Positions 20,919-26,823 are shown, numbered from the stretch's first letter. The stretch is 32,000 nt of DNA from Trichlorobacter lovleyi SZ (GCF_000020385.1 NC_010814.1:450001-482000); one strand, 5' to 3'. The notes: a model not told the origin generated them from the sequence alone. A program made the numbers and translations.

Positions 20919-22424
20919 ATGATGCAGCGTGTTGTCAAAACCATTGCCGGTCTGTTCCTGCTCCTGTTCATCGCCGCCCAGGCGGGGGCTGCCAACCTTG
21001 AGGACAAGGTGGTGGAACATACCTTTAAGAACGGTCTGAAGCTGTTGATGGTGGAACGCCACAGCTCACCCACGGTCTCGGCCTGGATCCGTTTCAAGGT
21101 GGGGAGTGTCCACGAGCGCAGTGATGAACGGGGGATTGCCCACCTGCTGGAGCATATGCTGTTCAAGGGGACCAGGACCCTGGGCACCAGGGATTACGCG
21201 GCCGAGGCCCCGTTGCTGGAAAAGATTGAAGAGACGGCCCAGCGGATGCTGGCTGAAGAGGCCAAGGGGAGCGGAGCTGACAAGGCGACGCTTGCCAGCC
21301 TGCGGGCCGAACTGGCCAGGCTTGAAAAACAGGCGGAGCAGTATGTGATCAAGGATGAATTCTTTGACCTCTATGCCCGCAACGGCGGTTCCGGCTACAA
21401 CGCCTTTACCAGCCGGGACGGCACCACCTACCTGATATCCCTGCCTGCCAACAAGCTGGAACTGTGGGCAGCCATCGAGTCCGACCGGATGAAGAACCCG
21501 GTGCTGCGGGAGTTTTATACCGAGCGTTCGGTGGTGATGGAGGAACGGCGGCGTTCCTATGATGCCGAGCCATCGTCCAAGTTGTGGGAGACCTTTGTGG
21601 CCGCCGCCTACCAGACCCATCCCTATGGCCAGCCCACCATCGGCTGGAGTTCGGATATCAGGCAGCTTTCCCGCACCAAGGCCGAGTCGTTCCTGAAACG
21701 CTACTACGCCCCCAACAATGCCATTGTGGCGGTGGTGGGGGATATCAGGCCTGCTGATACGATTGCGCTGGTGGAGCGCTATTTCGGCGATATCCCCCCC
21801 GGGACTCCGGTGCCGGAGGTGGCGGCACAGGAGGAGCAGCAGCAGGGCGAACGGCGGGTTGAGGTGCTGGGCGATGCCGAGCCGGAACTGATAATCGGTT
21901 TTCACAAGACCGCGCTGGGGGCCCCAGATGACGAGGTGTTCGACCTGGTCGCGTCAGTCCTGGGGCAGGGCCGCACCTCACGGCTCTACCGCTCGCTGGT
22001 GCTGGAAAAACAGCTGGCAACCCAAGTTTCGGTCTTTGATGCGCCGGGTAACCGCTACCCTAACCTGTTTGTGCTGTATGCCTCGCCCCGCGCCCCCCAC
22101 ACCGCTGCTGAGGTTGAACAGGCCTTGTTGGCCGAGCTGGAACGGCTGAAAAAGGAACCGGTGAGTCAGCAGGAACTGCAGCAGGTACTGAATCAGCTTG
22201 AGTTTGAAGAGGCTCGCCGGATGGGAACCAATGGCGGTCTGGCCCGTAATCTGACCGAGTATGAGGCCATCGCCGGCAGCTGGCGTTACCTGACCACCTA
22301 CCGTGCCAAGCTGACAAAGATCACCCCGGCTGATATTCAACGGGTGGCACGCCAGTATTTTACCCGCGAAAACAGGATTGTGGGTACCCTTGTCACGAAA
22401 AAACCGGGAGGTGCCCAGAAATGA
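20919..22424 (+). CDS. M16-family zinc peptidase (insulinase/pitrilysin-like), catalytically competent subunit, secreted
   Basis: Signal peptide MMQRVVKTIAGLFLLLFIAAQAGA and the inverted zinc motif HLLEHMLFKG (HxxEH). Confidence 0.9.
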   Translation: MMQRVVKTIAGLFLLLFIAAQAGAANLEDKVVEHTFKNGLKLLMVERHSSPTVSAWIRFKVGSVHERSDERGIAHLLEHMLFKGTRTLGTRDYAAEAPLLEKIEETAQRMLAEEAKGSGADKATLASLRAELARLEKQAEQYVIKDEFFDLYARNGGSGYNAFTSRDGTTYLISLPANKLELWAAIESDRMKNPVLREFYTERSVVMEERRRSYDAEPSSKLWETFVAAAYQTHPYGQPTIGWSSDIRQLSRTKAESFLKRYYAPNNAIVAVVGDIRPADTIALVERYFGDIPPGTPVPEVAAQEEQQQGERRVEVLGDAEPELIIGFHKTALGAPDDEVFDLVASVLGQGRTSRLYRSLVLEKQLATQVSVFDAPGNRYPNLFVLYASPRAPHTAAEVEQALLAELERLKKEPVSQQELQQVLNQLEFEEARRMGTNGGLARNLTEYEAIAGSWRYLTTYRAKLTKITPADIQRVARQYFTRENRIVGTLVTKKPGGAQK

Positions 22425-23836
22425 AGCTCCGTGTTCTCCTTGTCGGGCTGATCAGCATCTTCTGCCTCTCTGCAGCCTCTGCCGCAGAGTTGGCCAATCC
22501 CCGCAACATGACCTTCCCGGCCTTGAGCTTTAGCATTCCCAAGGCGGAGCGGGTGTTGTTGCAGAACGGTATGCCGGTGTATCTGCTGCAGGATCACGAA
22601 CTGCCGATGGTGACAATCTCTGCCCTGATCCATACCGGCTCGGTGTATGATCCAACAGGTAAAAGCGGCTTGGCAGCCCTGACCGGCTCCCAGCTGCGCG
22701 GTGGCGGCACCAAAGACCTTGCGCCGGCCGCCCTGGATGCTGAGCTTGAGTTCATGGCCTCTTCCGTGGAGAGTTCCTTTGGCAGTGATCTGGGAACGGT
22801 CTCCCTGACCAGCCTGACAAAAAATCTTGATCGCACCCTGCAACTGTTCAGTGACGTCCTGTTCCGGCCGCGCTTTGATGAAAAACGGCTGGAGGTGGCC
22901 AGACGGCAGGCGCTTGAGATGATCCGGCGTCAGAATGATGATCCCAAGGAGCTGGGGGACAGGGAGCTGCAAAAGGCGCTCTATGCAGGGCATCCGCTGG
23001 GGGTGATCCCTGCTGCTGCCACCGTGGCCGCTGTCAAGCGCAGTGACTTGCAGGCGTTTCATCAGCGCTTTGTCCGGCCGGACAACATGATCCTGACCGT
23101 TGCCGGTGATTTTGACCGGTCGCGCATGCTGGCTGCGCTGAATCGGCTGATTGGACAGATCAAACCGGAGGGGCGCTTGCAGCTGCCTGATATTCCGCAG
23201 GTGAAGCTGCGGTTTGAGCCGGCTGTGTTGTATGCCCCCAAGCAGGTCAATCAGTCCGTGATCAGGCTGGGCCACCTGGGTATCACCAAGGATGACCCTG
23301 ACCTGTACGCCATTCGGGTGCTGGATTTTATCCTGGGTGGCAGTTTTACCTCGCGCTTGATGATGGAGATCCGTACCAATCAGGGACTGGCCTATAACGT
23401 GGGTAGTCATTTTGATGTGGGACGGCACTTTATTGGCAGCTTTACGGCAGAGACCGAGACCAAGGCCGAGGCAACGGCGAAAACGATCGGTCTGATGAGC
23501 TCAATCATCGCAGCGATCCGCACGGAGCCGGTGAGTGAGCAGGAGCTGAAGCTGGCCAAGGACTCGATTATCAACTCGTTTTTGTTCGGTTTTACCACTC
23601 CGGCCTCCATTGTTGTTCAACAGGCCCGGCTGGAGTTTTACGGGTATCAGCCGGACTATCTGGAACGCTACCGGGAGCGGATCGCTGCGGTGACCCGTGA
23701 AGACCTGCTGCAGGCAGCAAAGAAGCATCTGCATCCCGAGGCCTTCAAGCTGGTGGTGGTGGGTGATCAGAAGAGGTTTGACAAGCCGCTGTCAAGCTTT
23801 GGTACGGTTACGACCCTTGATCTGAAATCGGAATAA
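22421..23836 (+). CDS. M16-family peptidase paralogue lacking HxxEH (non-catalytic partner subunit), secreted
   Basis: The ATGA overlap with the upstream gene indicates coupling. Signal peptide MKLRVLLVGLISIFCLSAASA. The HxxEH position reads GLAALTGSQL. The family fold is recognisable (VYLLQDHELPMVTISALI...). Confidence 0.85.
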   Translation: MKLRVLLVGLISIFCLSAASAAELANPRNMTFPALSFSIPKAERVLLQNGMPVYLLQDHELPMVTISALIHTGSVYDPTGKSGLAALTGSQLRGGGTKDLAPAALDAELEFMASSVESSFGSDLGTVSLTSLTKNLDRTLQLFSDVLFRPRFDEKRLEVARRQALEMIRRQNDDPKELGDRELQKALYAGHPLGVIPAAATVAAVKRSDLQAFHQRFVRPDNMILTVAGDFDRSRMLAALNRLIGQIKPEGRLQLPDIPQVKLRFEPAVLYAPKQVNQSVIRLGHLGITKDDPDLYAIRVLDFILGGSFTSRLMMEIRTNQGLAYNVGSHFDVGRHFIGSFTAETETKAEATAKTIGLMSSIIAAIRTEPVSEQELKLAKDSIINSFLFGFTTPASIVVQQARLEFYGYQPDYLERYRERIAAVTREDLLQAAKKHLHPEAFKLVVVGDQKRFDKPLSSFGTVTTLDLKSE

Positions 23837-24248: not shown

Positions 24249-24290
24249 AAAGAAGGCCCTGCCGGGTAACCGGCAGGGCCTTCTTTGTGT
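24249..24290 (+). terminator. Rho-independent terminator after flgM
   Basis: 16-bp stem AAGAAGGCCCTGCCGG/CCGGCAGGGCCTTCTT with a GTAA loop (24249-24285), followed by TGTGTTT. Confidence 0.85.
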
Positions 24291-24400
24291 TTCGGCACCC
24301 ACGCACGGACAGTGCCTTCCGGGTACTTCTTCGCACGGGTATTCTGCAACTGCCCTTTGATTCAAAACATGCCGGCTACTGCTACAGGATAAATGAAGGC

Positions 24401-24430
24401 TTGACAAAAAACAGGCGCCGTAGCATCAAT
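24401..24430 (+). promoter_or_regulatory. Candidate sigma70 promoter for the heptad-repeat protein operon
   Basis: Perfect TTGACA (24401-24406). After 17-18 nt come CATCAA/ATCAAT (24424-24430), running into a pure A/T tract. Confidence 0.4.
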
Positions 24431-24452
24431 ATATATAAATATATAAATATAT
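24428..24452 (+). repeat. 25-nt pure A/T tract with a tandem ATATAAAT octamer just upstream of the SD/start
   Basis: aatatatataaatatataaatatat; ATATAAAT sits at 24433-24440 and 24441-24448. This is exceptional in an otherwise GC-rich window. Confidence 0.8.
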
Positions 24453-24463
24453 GGGTGGTGCCT

Positions 24464-25618
24464 ATGTTAAAACTTATTCTGTCATGCATTGTCACGTTAT
24501 CGCTGGCCGTCGCTACCGTGCCTGCAGAGGCTGCCTTGACGACCTCGCTGCAGGATCTGGTTGTGCAGGGGAATGCGTTACGCTCTTCACTGACAACCAT
24601 TCAGGTCAGTAACGGCGGTGTCTGCGGCCAGCTCGGAACGCTTAATACCTCAATCGAAGACTACCTGTCGGTTGTGCAGGGTGTTTATAACCAGCTTGCC
24701 GCACCGCTGACCCTTACCTCTGCCGATCTGACCTCGCTGGAGGATCTGTCCGGGATCGCCCGTGACCTGGCAGCTGATTCCATCCGTCTGTCTTTGGAGT
24801 TACGCACCGTTGAGGGGGTGGCGGATCTGTTTGAATATCGTTCCGCCCTGAGCGCCATGTTGCGGCTGTCCGATGATATCGGTACGATGGCGGACCGGAT
24901 TCTGGAAATGGCCGACCGGATCCTGGCCATGGCCGATAATATTGGGCTCATGGCGGACCGGATCCTGGCTACGCAGAGGATCCAGGCCGCAAATATCGCC
25001 CTTACCCAGAACGCAATCCTGAGTACCCAAACAAACATGATTGCCCTCAGCAAGAGTCTGTCAACCATCGGCTACAACCTCACGCTGGGGTTGTTGTTGG
25101 CTGATACACAGTTTCAGGTGGCAGAGATGGGGCAGCTCACGCTTGATACATCCAATGCAGCTGCCACCTTGAGCTACCTTGAGACCAAAACGGCGGCACT
25201 CTCAGCACGTGTGCTGGTGGTGTATGACCTGATAACCAAAGACAGCCAGCAGGCAAGCCATTACGTTGATGGCAGCACCCTGACGTACCTTGGTGACCTG
25301 ACCGTGGCTCAAAAGCAGTTTGCGGCTGTACTTGAGACCTATGCCGCCACCATCAGCCAGATTGCGCCGCTAATGCAGACGCCGTTGCTCTCTGATGCCA
25401 CCCGTAGCATGCTCCGGTTGACGGCAGATATTAACACGATGTCCAAGCGGATTGTGGAGATGGGTGACAAGATTATTGTCATGGCAGACAACATCGGCAT
25501 CATGTCGGGCCGGATTGTGGAAACCCAGGTGATTCAGCGTGAAAATGTGGCGCTGACATTGAGTTCTGCCCAGGCAGCCCAGAGTACCATGCTTGCATTG
25601 ATCAAAAACATGAACTGA
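24464..25618 (+). CDS. Secreted heptad-repeat protein A (384 aa precursor), unknown family; internally duplicated module
   Basis: ATG at 24464 and signal peptide MLKLILSCIVTLSLAVATVPAEA|A. There are two copies of a module ending in LRLSDDIGTMADRILEMADRILAMADNIGLMADRILATQ and MLRLTADINTMSKRIVEMGDKIIVMADNIGIMSGRIVETQ. It is clearly paralogous to the downstream gene. The ORF-track start at 24287 lies upstream of the promoter and A/T tract. Confidence 0.85.
   Translation: MLKLILSCIVTLSLAVATVPAEAALTTSLQDLVVQGNALRSSLTTIQVSNGGVCGQLGTLNTSIEDYLSVVQGVYNQLAAPLTLTSADLTSLEDLSGIARDLAADSIRLSLELRTVEGVADLFEYRSALSAMLRLSDDIGTMADRILEMADRILAMADNIGLMADRILATQRIQAANIALTQNAILSTQTNMIALSKSLSTIGYNLTLGLLLADTQFQVAEMGQLTLDTSNAAATLSYLETKTAALSARVLVVYDLITKDSQQASHYVDGSTLTYLGDLTVAQKQFAAVLETYAATISQIAPLMQTPLLSDATRSMLRLTADINTMSKRIVEMGDKIIVMADNIGIMSGRIVETQVIQRENVALTLSSAQAAQSTMLALIKNMN
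24887..24970 (+). repeat. 4 x 21-bp tandem repeat encoding MADRILE/MADRILA/MADNIGL/MADRILA (protein A, block 1)
   Basis: atggcggaccggattctggaa atggccgaccggatcctggcc atggccgataatattgggctc atggcggaccggatcctggct. Confidence 0.95.
25439..25522 (+). repeat. Diverged 4 x 21-bp heptad block (protein A, block 2)
   Basis: Encodes MSKRIVE/MGDKIIV/MADNIGI/MSGRIVE. Confidence 0.85.
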
Positions 25619-25650
25619 TACCAGCCGATAGCGGCATAGGGAGATACAGC

Positions 25651-26823
25651 GTGAAAAATTATCTGAAAAACAGCATACACCTGATTCTGCTGGCTACAGT
25701 CGGCCTGTTTATAGGGGCTGTGCCGGCCCAGGCAGATCTTGCAGAAGATCTGCAGGGATTGATTGTTCAGTCACAGAACCTTGAAGTTCAATTGAAAAAT
25801 ATAACGCTTAATCCTGACTCGGTCTGTGGTCCGCTGGTCGAGGCAAACAAACAGGCCCGTGCCCTGTCTAACAGCGCTGCGGCCCTGAACAGCAGTCTGG
25901 CAGCGCCGTTACAGACGGACGCAGCACTGCTGACAGCCATGGATACCTTGTCCATGACCGTCTTGAATATCTCCAATGAGTCCTTGCGGCTGTCCCTCGA
26001 CCTGAAGGCGCTCAGCACCGTCAGCCGGGCCATCACCCTGAAGGATGGCATGACCGCAACGCTGCAGTTGTCTGATGATATTGGTGCCATGGCCGACCGG
26101 ATTGGCGAGATGTCCGACAAAATTCTGGTGATGTCGGATAATATCGGTGTCATGGCCGACCGTATCCTGGTCAGCCAGCAGTTGCAGAGCCAGAATCTGG
26201 CTCTGACGCAACAGGGGCTGTTGCAGACCCAGACCAACGCATTAACCCTGGTGGGGGTGCTGGAGACGGCGACCAATGACCTGGCACTGAGCAGCCTGAT
26301 TGCGGAGGGGACAGTGCTGACGGCCAAGTTAAGCGCACTTGTGTTGAATCCGTTTACCATGAAGACGCAGATGCAGTATGCGGCTGCCAGCATCCGGACC
26401 TATCTGGACAAGGTCAAGGCGCTCCACACGACCATGCTTTTCCAGGCTGGTACAGGTACCAGCTATCTCAGTACAACGACGCTGCTGAACCAGCAGAACA
26501 TGACTATCATGCTGAGTTCACTGGCGAATGTTCTGGATGGCTACACCATTGCCATCGGCGGGCTGCAGGCGATCACCTCCAAGCCAACCTTGACCGATTC
26601 CATGAAGAGCATGCTGCAGATGTCTGCCGATATCGGCCTGATGGCCAACCGGGTCCTGGAGATGGGTGATGTCATTCTGGCCATGGCTGATAATATCGGT
26701 ATGGTGGCAGATCAGATCCTGGTGGCCCAGCAGCTGCAGAACGCAAACATGGTGGTGACCCAGGCCTCCGTGCTGGGGGCACAGGAGTTTGCCATCGGGG
26801 TATTGAAGCGCCTGGTGAATTAG
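25651..26823 (+). CDS. Secreted heptad-repeat protein B (390 aa precursor), paralogue of protein A
   Basis: GTG at 25651 with AGGGAG upstream and signal peptide ...LILLATVGLFIGAVPAQA|D. Same architecture as protein A:
- a conserved single Cys (SVCGPLV versus GVCGQLG)
- the SLRLSLDLK / SIRLSLELR motif
- blocks LQLSDDIGAMADRIGEMSDKILVMSDNIGVMADRILVSQ and MLQMSADIGLMANRVLEMGDVILAMADNIGMVADQILVAQ. Confidence 0.85.
   Translation: MKNYLKNSIHLILLATVGLFIGAVPAQADLAEDLQGLIVQSQNLEVQLKNITLNPDSVCGPLVEANKQARALSNSAAALNSSLAAPLQTDAALLTAMDTLSMTVLNISNESLRLSLDLKALSTVSRAITLKDGMTATLQLSDDIGAMADRIGEMSDKILVMSDNIGVMADRILVSQQLQSQNLALTQQGLLQTQTNALTLVGVLETATNDLALSSLIAEGTVLTAKLSALVLNPFTMKTQMQYAAASIRTYLDKVKALHTTMLFQAGTGTSYLSTTTLLNQQNMTIMLSSLANVLDGYTIAIGGLQAITSKPTLTDSMKSMLQMSADIGLMANRVLEMGDVILAMADNIGMVADQILVAQQLQNANMVVTQASVLGAQEFAIGVLKRLVN
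26089..26172 (+). repeat. 4 x 21-bp heptad block (protein B, block 1)
   Basis: Encodes MADRIGE/MSDKILV/MSDNIGV/MADRILV. Confidence 0.9.
26641..26724 (+). repeat. 4 x 21-bp heptad block (protein B, block 2)
   Basis: Encodes MANRVLE/MGDVILA/MADNIGM/VADQILV. Confidence 0.85.

Follow-up and report, generated by a model that had tools for sequence, protein, structure and literature searches.

A pair of adjoining genes was analysed in a 32-kb stretch of DNA (the window) from Trichlorobacter (formerly Geobacter) lovleyi SZ, and all coordinates of this locus are those of the window. Gene A (Glov_0499, WP_041242827.1) occupied positions 24464-25618 on the + strand, started with ATG and encoded 384 aa. 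Gene B (Glov_0500, WP_012468584.1) occupied positions 25651-26823 on the + strand, started with GTG and encoded 390 aa. Both starts matched the RefSeq records, in which each product was labelled "hypothetical protein". The spacer between the two genes (25619-25650, + strand, 32 nt) contained a GGGAGA ribosome-binding site, and a scan of it for a terminator-like site found none. The open reading frames (ORFs), RefSeq and the spacer scan thus agreed with the first-pass annotation, which had described two co-oriented adjoining genes of these lengths, 32 nt apart and with no terminator between them. Protein A consisted of a signal peptide (residues 1-23) and two five-helix modules (residues ~24-200 and 201-384), and in protein B the signal peptide (residues 1-28) likewise preceded two modules. 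A and B represent an undescribed protein family, and novelty is claimed for the family and not for a mechanism.

Comparison of the two products showed that they are paralogous, as had been proposed, with 35% identity over 382 residues (E 1e-65). The proposed internal duplication was likewise recovered in each protein (module 1 against module 2, E 2e-22 for A and 2e-25 for B), with a module of ~185 aa. Across the two genes, the first modules were 43% similar (A1 and B1) and the second modules 33% similar (A2 and B2). Since A1 is nearest to B1 and A2 nearest to B2, the fusion of two modules is older than the duplication of the gene.

Each module carried one copy of a signature block. The pattern DI[GN].M[AS].R[IV].EM.D.I..M.DNIG gave 4 matches in the six-frame translation of the window, one per module and none elsewhere, in agreement with the four copies noted at first. 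At the DNA level the block measured 154 nt and occurred four times with a spacing of 552, 650 and 552, all on the + strand and all containing a match to the pattern. Copy 1, the reference copy of the repeat, lay in module 1 of A (24856-25009) and contains LSDDIGTMADRILEMADRILAMADNIGLMADRILATQRIQAAN. Copy 2 in module 2 of A (25408-25561), copy 3 in module 1 of B (26058-26211), and copy 4 in module 2 of B (26610-26763) showed 66%, 69%, and 70% nucleotide identity to copy 1, respectively, which indicates that the copies are old and that no recent gene conversion keeps them alike.

Conservation within the module was concentrated in helix 4, the turn and helix 5, which together contained four heptads of the form I-[G/L]-x-M-A-D-[R/K/N], where ADNIG forms the turn. 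Read from the sequence, the heptad register placed I at a, G/L at b, M at d, A at e, D at f, and R/K/N at g, and only position c varied. With A at e and G/L at b, the apolar face is broad and its small residues allow close packing; D and R/K/N flank it. In helix 5, beyond the final MADRI heptad, the canonical a and d positions were occupied by the invariant T170, Q171, Q174, N177, T188, Q189, and N191, which form a polar stripe. The signature of ~45 residues was nearly invariant from Campylobacterota to Nitrospirota. Conservation of six of the seven heptad positions across phyla goes far beyond what fold stability needs and marks the hairpin as a putative functional element, through which subunits would assemble or a ligand would be bound. 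As judged from these alignments, purifying selection is focused on the hairpin.

Structure prediction with AlphaFold2 gave a confident model for module 1 of A taken alone, with a predicted local distance difference test score (pLDDT) of 85.5 and a predicted template modelling score (pTM) of 0.80. The input was a 42-sequence alignment of modules and single-module proteins. The model was a five-helix bundle with helices at residues 21-44, 53-77, 86-116, 122-156, and 161-199. The signature block corresponded to helices 4 and 5 and the tight A-D-N-I-G turn between them (pLDDT 87-95). The first-pass annotation had described the block as followed by a Q/T-rich helix; in the model there is no single long helix with a Q/T helix behind it, and the block is a helix-turn-helix hairpin within the bundle. 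The model of full-length A was poor (pLDDT 60, pTM 0.32); it contained helices as long as 110 and 77 residues, and on account of its low confidence it was not used for the fold search.

Both N-termini showed a basic start and a hydrophobic core with a Kyte-Doolittle 19-residue mean of 2.0-2.2 (2.19 at residue 1 of A). The Sec-type signal peptide of A, MLKLILSCIVTLSLAVATVPAEA, was encoded at 24464-24532 (+ strand) with predicted cleavage after AEA and before A, and that of B, MKNYLKNSIHLILLATVGLFIGAVPAQA, at 25651-25734 (+ strand) with predicted cleavage after AQA and before D. Residue A23 was invariant, and the AxA pattern was present in every aligned homologue, which agrees with the AxA-type signal peptides first described. 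The term Sec-exported refers here to these N-terminal sequence features and to their conservation across homologues. The signal peptide of A contained no twin-arginine motif and no lipobox. The N-terminus was the only segment with a Kyte-Doolittle mean above 2.0, the mature maxima being 1.26 (A) and 1.59 (B), and a regular-expression search of A and B for the CxxCH heme motif and for the lipobox [LVI][ASTVI][GAS]C found none. Hydrophobicity and pattern search together were in accord with the earlier statement that neither motif is present and that no further transmembrane segment exists.

The mature proteins were acidic and rich in A, L, T, S, and Q. They had no Trp, and F and Y together made up ~2-3%, which supports the scarcity of aromatic residues remarked on earlier. 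The shared S(I/L)RLSL(E/D)L(R/K) motif was found as SIRLSLELR in A and SLRLSLDLK in B. Each protein had the one conserved Cys that had been reported. The codon of Cys54, the sole Cys of mature A, was located at 24623-24625 (+ strand), in the loop of module 1 between helix 1 and helix 2. The codon of Cys59, the sole Cys of B and the positional homologue of Cys54, was located at 25825-25827 (+ strand). A Cys at the homologous position was present in all unique A orthologues (53/53) and in every B orthologue. Among the 53 unique pairs, only one A and one B had any further mature Cys. In single-module proteins this position held no Cys.

Searches for a known family returned no name for A or B. On Pfam the only match was to DUF7162 (PF23721), which was sub-threshold with 22.3 bits for A and 13.3 bits for B against a cut-off of 27. 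The match in A covered residues 142-179 (E 1.4e-4) and 38 of the 80 profile positions. When 42 isolated module sequences were compared with Pfam, neither DUF7162 nor any other family matched at E <= 0.01. NCBIfam gave no match for A or B, and sequence-profile searches of the PDB with full-length and module profiles returned only designed coiled coils and similar helical noise. All named homologues carried the label "hypothetical protein". The literature searched contained no mention of Glov_0499, Glov_0500, or DUF7162, and searching it for cable-bacteria fibres and vent metaproteomes yielded nothing relevant. The initial view that the proteins fit no nameable family was therefore upheld by Pfam, NCBIfam, and the PDB profiles. 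The first-pass annotation had named beforehand two outcomes that would speak against novelty, a confident profile match to a family of known function, and the lack of orthologues combined with a lack of transcription or peptide evidence. No such match was found in the Pfam, NCBIfam, and PDB profile searches, and orthologues were plentiful.

A word-seeded protein search returned more than 1000 homologues of ~381-390 aa that were 50-68% identical to A, none of them named. An exhaustive hidden Markov model search of 1.84 billion cluster representatives returned 409 clusters, which indicates a family that is small yet well defined. The scan of GTDB, with one genome per species, matched 200 stretches, from which 75 loci were fetched. 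The hosts included Trichlorobacter, Geobacteraceae, and Desulfuromonadaceae; Desulfurivibrionaceae, Desulfocapsaceae, and other Desulfobulbia; Nitrospirota; Sulfurovum, Sulfurimonas, and Sulfuricurvum; and Thioalkalivibrio, Thiohalomonas, Acidiferrobacterales, Thioalkalispiraceae, and Hydrogenophilales. Nearly all of them are sulfur- or metal-cycling bacteria, anaerobes and microaerophiles. Isolates that carry the family include T. lovleyi SZ, Sulfurimonas sp. HSL-1656, Thiovibrio sp. JS02, and Desulfolithobacter dissulfuricans.

Gene A preceded gene B on the same strand in all loci with two full-length members (55/55). The gap between them, measured to the longest-ORF start of B, was at most 48 nt or an overlap in 54 of the 55, with one outlier of 138 nt. 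A solitary two-module gene was seen only at contig ends. The pairwise identity (distance) matrices of the A and B orthologues correlated with r = 0.91.

Shorter and longer forms of the family were also found. A stand-alone single-module form of ~215 aa with a signal peptide occurred in Nitrospirota, Desulfobulbaceae (including Desulfolithobacter dissulfuricans), and Gammaproteobacteria (loci L061-L078 and L079), and in two cases a pair and a single-module gene were present within one genome (L041 with L063, and L007 with L077). A mini form of ~150 aa occurred in Hydrogenimonas, Sulfurovum, Sulfurimonas, Nitratiruptor, and Beggiatoa. Five mini forms (P0338, P0345, P0346, P0352, and P0362) had a single Cys a few residues past the predicted signal-peptide cleavage site. 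Long relatives contained four to seven copies of a shorter unit, ...LSDDIGxMADRIGxMxDxIxETxxxQSxNF..., and comprised P0326 (741 aa), P0372 (2399 aa), P0317, P0319, P0327, and P0333. Two of these ended in RTX calcium-binding repeats, from which it appears that the signature is also used in type-I-secreted proteins. Pfam found only RTX repeats beside the motif in the RTX-fused relatives, and they gave no functional clue past "secreted". Every form of the family with a complete N-terminus had an export signal, either a Sec signal peptide or a lipobox. One further candidate, P0308 (L083, 426-1121), was a 231-aa lipoprotein that joined the N-terminus of an efflux adaptor to a C-terminal half-module of A, followed by the start of B. 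It was set aside as a probable assembly chimera, since it sits on a metagenome scaffold of 1380 bp.

The genomic surroundings of the pair were not conserved. The upstream gene in T. lovleyi was flgM (Pfam FlgM, 2.4e-12), and downstream the stop of gene B overlapped the stop of a convergent hemD-like ORF by 4 nt (26820-26823), as the stop-to-stop arrangement first described implies; this overlap leaves no room for a terminator of either transcript. Whether adjacency to flgM or hemD is conserved had been raised at the outset, and it proved peculiar to T. lovleyi, being kept in none of ~80 other loci. BLAST clustering of all flanking ORFs of 79 loci gave no cross-lineage family except signal-transduction proteins and components of resistance-nodulation-division (RND) efflux systems. 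In a census by Pfam family, the 113 immediate neighbours at 65 non-redundant loci represented 144 families, among which histidine kinase was the commonest (8/113) and every other family occurred at most 3 times. The neighbouring kinases were heterogeneous and included hybrid kinases with Cache, CHASE, HAMP, GAF, or PAS domains, and the wider signalling neighbours included some GGDEF-EAL proteins. RND adaptor or permease genes were found within 6 kb of a family gene in ~11 of 80 loci from five lineages. They lay directly downstream on the same strand in L013 (8565-12844) and L041 (8727-12973), and upstream in L068 (688-5059), L073 (253-4662), and L080 (1241-7354; with MarR and an outer-membrane factor). 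The other loci with RND neighbours were L005, L007, L036, L040, L042, and L054. The neighbouring pumps were of differing subtypes and scored as multidrug-type, under the curated cut-off of the CusA/CzcA heavy-metal model. The kinase and RND associations are weak leads.

Glov_0499 and Glov_0500 thus form an autonomous two-gene cassette with no partner gene travelling along, an autonomy that speaks against membership of an enzyme pathway or of a machine with many parts. The first-pass annotation had spoken of a system; the two-gene pair stands, and neighbour clustering and the Pfam census gave no support for any further partner gene. Two loci had neighbours connected with sulfur or redox chemistry. 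In Thiovibrio the pair lay between a rhodanese gene and a TusA/DsrE gene (L001, 9300-9737 and 14039-14653), and in Sulfurovum kebritense (L002, 2297-3423) it followed thioredoxin and methionine sulfoxide reductase (MsrA) genes. These neighbours are lineage-specific.

The upstream boundary of the cassette was the intrinsic-terminator hairpin of flgM (24250-24286, + strand), which parts flgM from gene A. Read directly, it had a perfect 16-bp stem, a GTAA loop, and a T-rich tail. A search of the region on Rfam returned only "P11" on this hairpin, with 24.4 bits, far under the gathering score of 70. A -35-like TTGACA hexamer of a presumed own promoter was read at 24401-24406 (+ strand). No good -10 hexamer was present 16-18 nt past it, and a consensus promoter scan made no call there. 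Of the promoter first proposed, the TTGACA stood, while a good -10 element and a consensus-scan call were wanting, and the case for the cassette's own promoter at this site is only half convincing. An A/T-only leader of 25 nt (24428-24452, + strand) lay just 5' of the ribosome-binding site of gene A, and it was the sole A/T-only run of at least 25 nt in the window, in keeping with the description of the leader as unusual.

Comparable leaders were found in distant loci. TTGAC-type hexamers with A/T-rich leaders recurred 5' of gene A in L001, L005, L006, L009, and L015, and A/T-only runs of 13-31 nt were present at the equivalent place in L001, L002, L005, L007, L009, L013, L015, L024, and L079. 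Upstream of gene A or of the single-module gene, the GC content of the leader was 20-45% against 45-63% for the locus. The TTGAC-type -35 element in distant loci often lay 17-18 nt before a TTAATT or TATAAT-like element. From the window (24380-24463) and the distant loci, the A/T-rich leader looks like a conserved feature of the expression of the cassette.

In the original GenBank record (ACD94227.1), gene A was given as 443 aa from a GTG at 24287. The ATG at 24464 was preferred because 24287 is the foot of the flgM hairpin, RefSeq uses the 384-aa start, and the homologues begin with the signal peptide. Long antisense ORFs were present within A (24685-25068) and B (25788-26393), with equivalents in 76 loci, nearly all of the set, and they were taken as shadow ORFs of the conserved coding sequence and not as genes. 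Upstream of flgM (20919-23836), two adjoining M16-type peptidase-like ORFs of 501 and 471 aa were observed, both with signal-like N-termini, and a 363-aa antisense shadow ORF overlapped the second.

Taken together, sequence analysis presents A and B as predicted exported, acidic, all-helical proteins of two subunits and four modules, with no membrane anchor, cofactor motif, or enzyme signature. The architectures suggest an evolutionary series in which one module would have given rise to two fused modules and these in turn to two genes. A and B would assemble into an obligate hetero-oligomer, the simplest form of which would be a disulfide-linked pseudo-symmetric heterodimer with four equivalent bundles. 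The strict co-occurrence, the gene order, the evolutionary series, and the Cys pattern make it probable that the two proteins form an obligate hetero-oligomer, in which the functional unit would be four modules; single-module proteins would reach it as homo-oligomers. Given the obligate co-occurrence of exported A and B with one homologous Cys each, an intermolecular disulfide across the pseudo-two-fold axis would be the simplest explanation. An alternative role for the conserved Cys would be that of a reactive thiol, such as a persulfide carrier.

For the activity of the bundles, the fold search gave a lead. Foldseek comparison of the module with the PDB returned as best matches 6zpp, 5j5l, 5j5k, and 5e7x, which are lipid-binding bundles of the fungal MP1/HsbA type. 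The template modelling (TM) scores were 0.53-0.56 (query) and 0.65-0.69 (target), with a root-mean-square deviation (rmsd) of ~4 A over 168-177 columns and an identity of 11-14%. The structures 5j5l and 5j5k are Afmp4p with bound fatty acids, and 5e7x is Mp1p LBD1 with palmitate. Comparison with the viral structures of BFVD gave no match. The modelled module had the five-helix up-and-down bundle of ~150-180 residues that is expected of an MP1/HsbA domain. In such domains five helices surround a channel-like hydrophobic cavity in which fatty acids are bound, adsorption to hydrophobic solids is a property of HsbA, and Mp1p has two tandem domains where its paralogues have one (PMC13537970; PMC5488042). 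On the strength of the fold match and the phyletic pattern, the bundles of A and B might act in the manner of MP1/HsbA or apolipophorin-III-type modules and take up or coat a hydrophobic substance, a suggestion that is offered tentatively.

The best overall reading, itself a possibility and not an expectation, would be a self-contained, non-enzymatic, probably disulfide-linked A/B protein of the envelope with four bundles that perhaps bind or coat a hydrophobic substance. The protein would probably be produced abundantly, from an own promoter with an unstructured A/T-rich leader. The recurrent A/T-rich leader behind a TTGAC-type -35 element suggests high expression, which fits a stoichiometric binder or structural protein better than a catalyst. 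Candidate ligands would be zero-valent sulfur or polysulfane, or an envelope lipid, a proposal prompted by hosts that, almost without exception, are anaerobes or microaerophiles cycling sulfur or metals. That the substance is zero-valent sulfur is speculative and improbable. In its widest form, which is a long shot, the proposal is that A/B and the single-module, mini, and RTX relatives would carry or coat zero-valent sulfur (S8 or polysulfane) outside the cytoplasm. The Met-lined five-helix bundles would then solubilise or shuttle hydrophobic sulfur among inner-membrane enzymes, the periplasm, and the cell exterior, and sulfur oxidisers, sulfur disproportionators, and reducers of sulfur or metals would share the family through horizontal transfer.

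Several points weigh against this reading of a ligand-binding bundle. The Foldseek E-values were non-significant (best 3.6e-3, ranging to 2e-2, none <= 1e-3), and up-and-down helical bundles readily match one another. No sequence or profile signal linked A or B to HsbA/MP1, whether in Pfam, with the 42 modules, or in the PDB profiles; A and B had no MP1/HsbA match in Pfam at E <= 1, and no MP1 chain appeared in the PDB profile searches at E <= 10. In the full-length model of A, helices 3-5 (residues 86-195) formed one unbroken helix, and the closed bundle may not be the sole state of A. The difference between the full-length and module-only helices could be an artefact of a shallow alignment or a hint of open and closed states. 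The near-invariant polar residues D, R/K, N, Q, and T are left unexplained by simple binding of a hydrophobic ligand and point instead to a specific interface or a polar ligand. Both the A/B heterodimer and its disulfide are putative. The link to sulfur comes solely from the identity of the hosts, a pattern open to bias from the sampling of sulfidic habitats, and T. lovleyi itself is not first and foremost a sulfur organism.

Among the alternatives, an envelope-stress protein or periplasmic holdase in the manner of Spy, CpxP, and ZraP was considered, induced by a sensor kinase and using the hairpin as a client- or sensor-binding surface. The genes do stand alone and partnerless, and sensor histidine kinases, several with periplasmic Cache or CHASE domains, were the only over-represented immediate neighbour, at an estimated ~3-4 times the typical genomic frequency. 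The RND operons described above would also suit a stress function, as would the Sulfurovum locus in which thioredoxin, MsrA, and an OmpR-type two-component system adjoin the pair, and the single-module locus of Desulfolithobacter near an M48 peptidase. Against this, the adjoining kinases do not form a single orthologous group, the RND subtypes differ, and the enrichment is weak. Neither A nor B gave a Pfam LTXXQ/CpxP-like or Spy signal at E <= 1, and the alignment showed no LTxxQ motif in the conserved helices. Confinement to sulfur- and metal-cycling lineages would be surprising for a general chaperone, and the known holdases are basic cradles of small size, unlike an acidic heterodimer with four bundles. 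This explanation is considered unlikely.

An abundant structural protein of the envelope was given equally little credence. A and B would here build a coiled-coil polymer, a spacer, or a surface-layer-like lattice, with the hairpins and the T/Q/N stripes zipping the subunits together. The composition is flagellin-like, being rich in A, L, T, S, and Q with no Trp and almost no Cys, and the six conserved heptad positions imply a helix that is contacted on nearly all sides. The helices of 110 and 77 residues favoured by the full-length model, the A/T-rich leader of a kind typical of highly expressed genes (the link to expression being an inferred one), and the RTX-fused multi-repeat relatives, which suggest display at the cell surface, point the same way. 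The isolated module, however, was confidently modelled as a closed globular bundle, no genes for assembly, anchoring, or secretion accompany the pair, and neither a lipid anchor nor a peptidoglycan-binding domain is present.

A buffer for the soft metals Cu(I) and Ag(I), a Met-lined analogue of the Cys-lined copper storage proteins in which stacked d-position Met thioethers and Asp would bind the metal, is less credible again. It would account for the invariant Met every seven residues (four per block, in all four blocks) and for the ladder of Asp beside the Met positions, and RND pumps lie nearby in some loci. A Met in the core of a heptad is nevertheless ordinary packing, and the alignment showed neither conserved ligands of the His or Cys type nor any MxxM or HxxM pair. 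The adjoining pumps are of the multidrug type and fall below the cut-off for CusA/CzcA, and the census of 113 neighbours contained no cop, cus, or czc gene. Copper is also scarce in sulfidic habitats.

A binary alpha-helical pore-forming toxin of the ClyA, YaxAB, and XaxAB kind, in which two adjoining paralogous helical proteins of ~400 aa act together, is disfavoured as very improbable: gene arrangement and protein size are comparable and ClyA, AhlB, and AhlC appeared far down the Foldseek list, but superposition on 2wcd, 6h2e, 6grj, and 6r1j gave TM 0.17-0.23 and rmsd 31-43 A, the mature hydrophobicity maxima exclude a hydrophobic head or tongue segment, Pfam gave no match, and the family is carried by free-living chemolithotrophs and metal reducers. 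A role as flagellar accessory proteins under common regulation with flgM, an idea suggested by the position of A and B directly downstream of flgM in T. lovleyi, is the least probable of all, since gene A is cut off from flgM by the strong terminator hairpin, neither Pfam nor NCBIfam gave a flagellar match (as the first-pass annotation had held in finding no relation to flagellar axial proteins), the flgM of the window clustered with no ORF of other loci, no flagellar family was listed among the 113 neighbours, no sigma-28-type promoter was found by eye downstream of flgM, and A and B have AxA signal peptides, whereas flagellar type-III substrates are not known to use cleavable Sec signal peptides. 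The remaining probability falls to something else.

The handling of insoluble hydrophobic substrates such as elemental sulfur by bacteria, in the periplasm or at the cell surface, is a long-standing gap. The family is of note for its near-invariant motif, its strict two-subunit four-module architecture, its lack of partners, and its sulfur- and metal-cycling hosts, all in proteins that are unnamed. Whatever its role, it defines a new extracytoplasmic domain.

Comparison with known systems showed likenesses and differences in each case. DUF7162 was the sole Pfam model that touches the MADRI heptads of A and B; it has no known function, and both proteins fall below its gathering cut-off. The ClyA-family toxins (YaxAB, XaxAB, and AhlABC) resemble A/B in having adjoining paralogous genes for helical proteins of ~350-400 aa, and A/B differs from them in its TM of at most 0.23, the lack of a hydrophobic membrane-insertion element, its Sec signal peptides, and its non-pathogen hosts. 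Spy, CpxP, and ZraP are, like A/B, Sec-exported and all-helical with helical hairpins and stand-alone genes, and some A/B loci adjoin two-component systems and RND pumps, which are generally known as partners in the Spy regulon of E. coli. Unlike these proteins, A/B is more than twice the size, acidic, putatively heteromeric, and built of four modules, has no match to the LTXXQ family, and is restricted to sulfur- and metal-cycling lineages. The closest likeness was to the fungal MP1/HsbA proteins (Mp1p LBD1/LBD2, Afmp4p, and g7941), which are also secreted, have five up-and-down helices in ~150-180 residues, and occur in one-domain and tandem two-domain forms (PMC5488042), with no enzymatic motifs in either family. 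MP1/HsbA is a fungal family and A/B a bacterial one, and the likeness between them is one of predicted fold alone. Unlike MP1/HsbA, the A/B family has the near-invariant Met/Asp/Arg/Asn-rich heptad hairpin with its T/Q/N stripe, the obligate pairing of A with B, and the conserved Cys.

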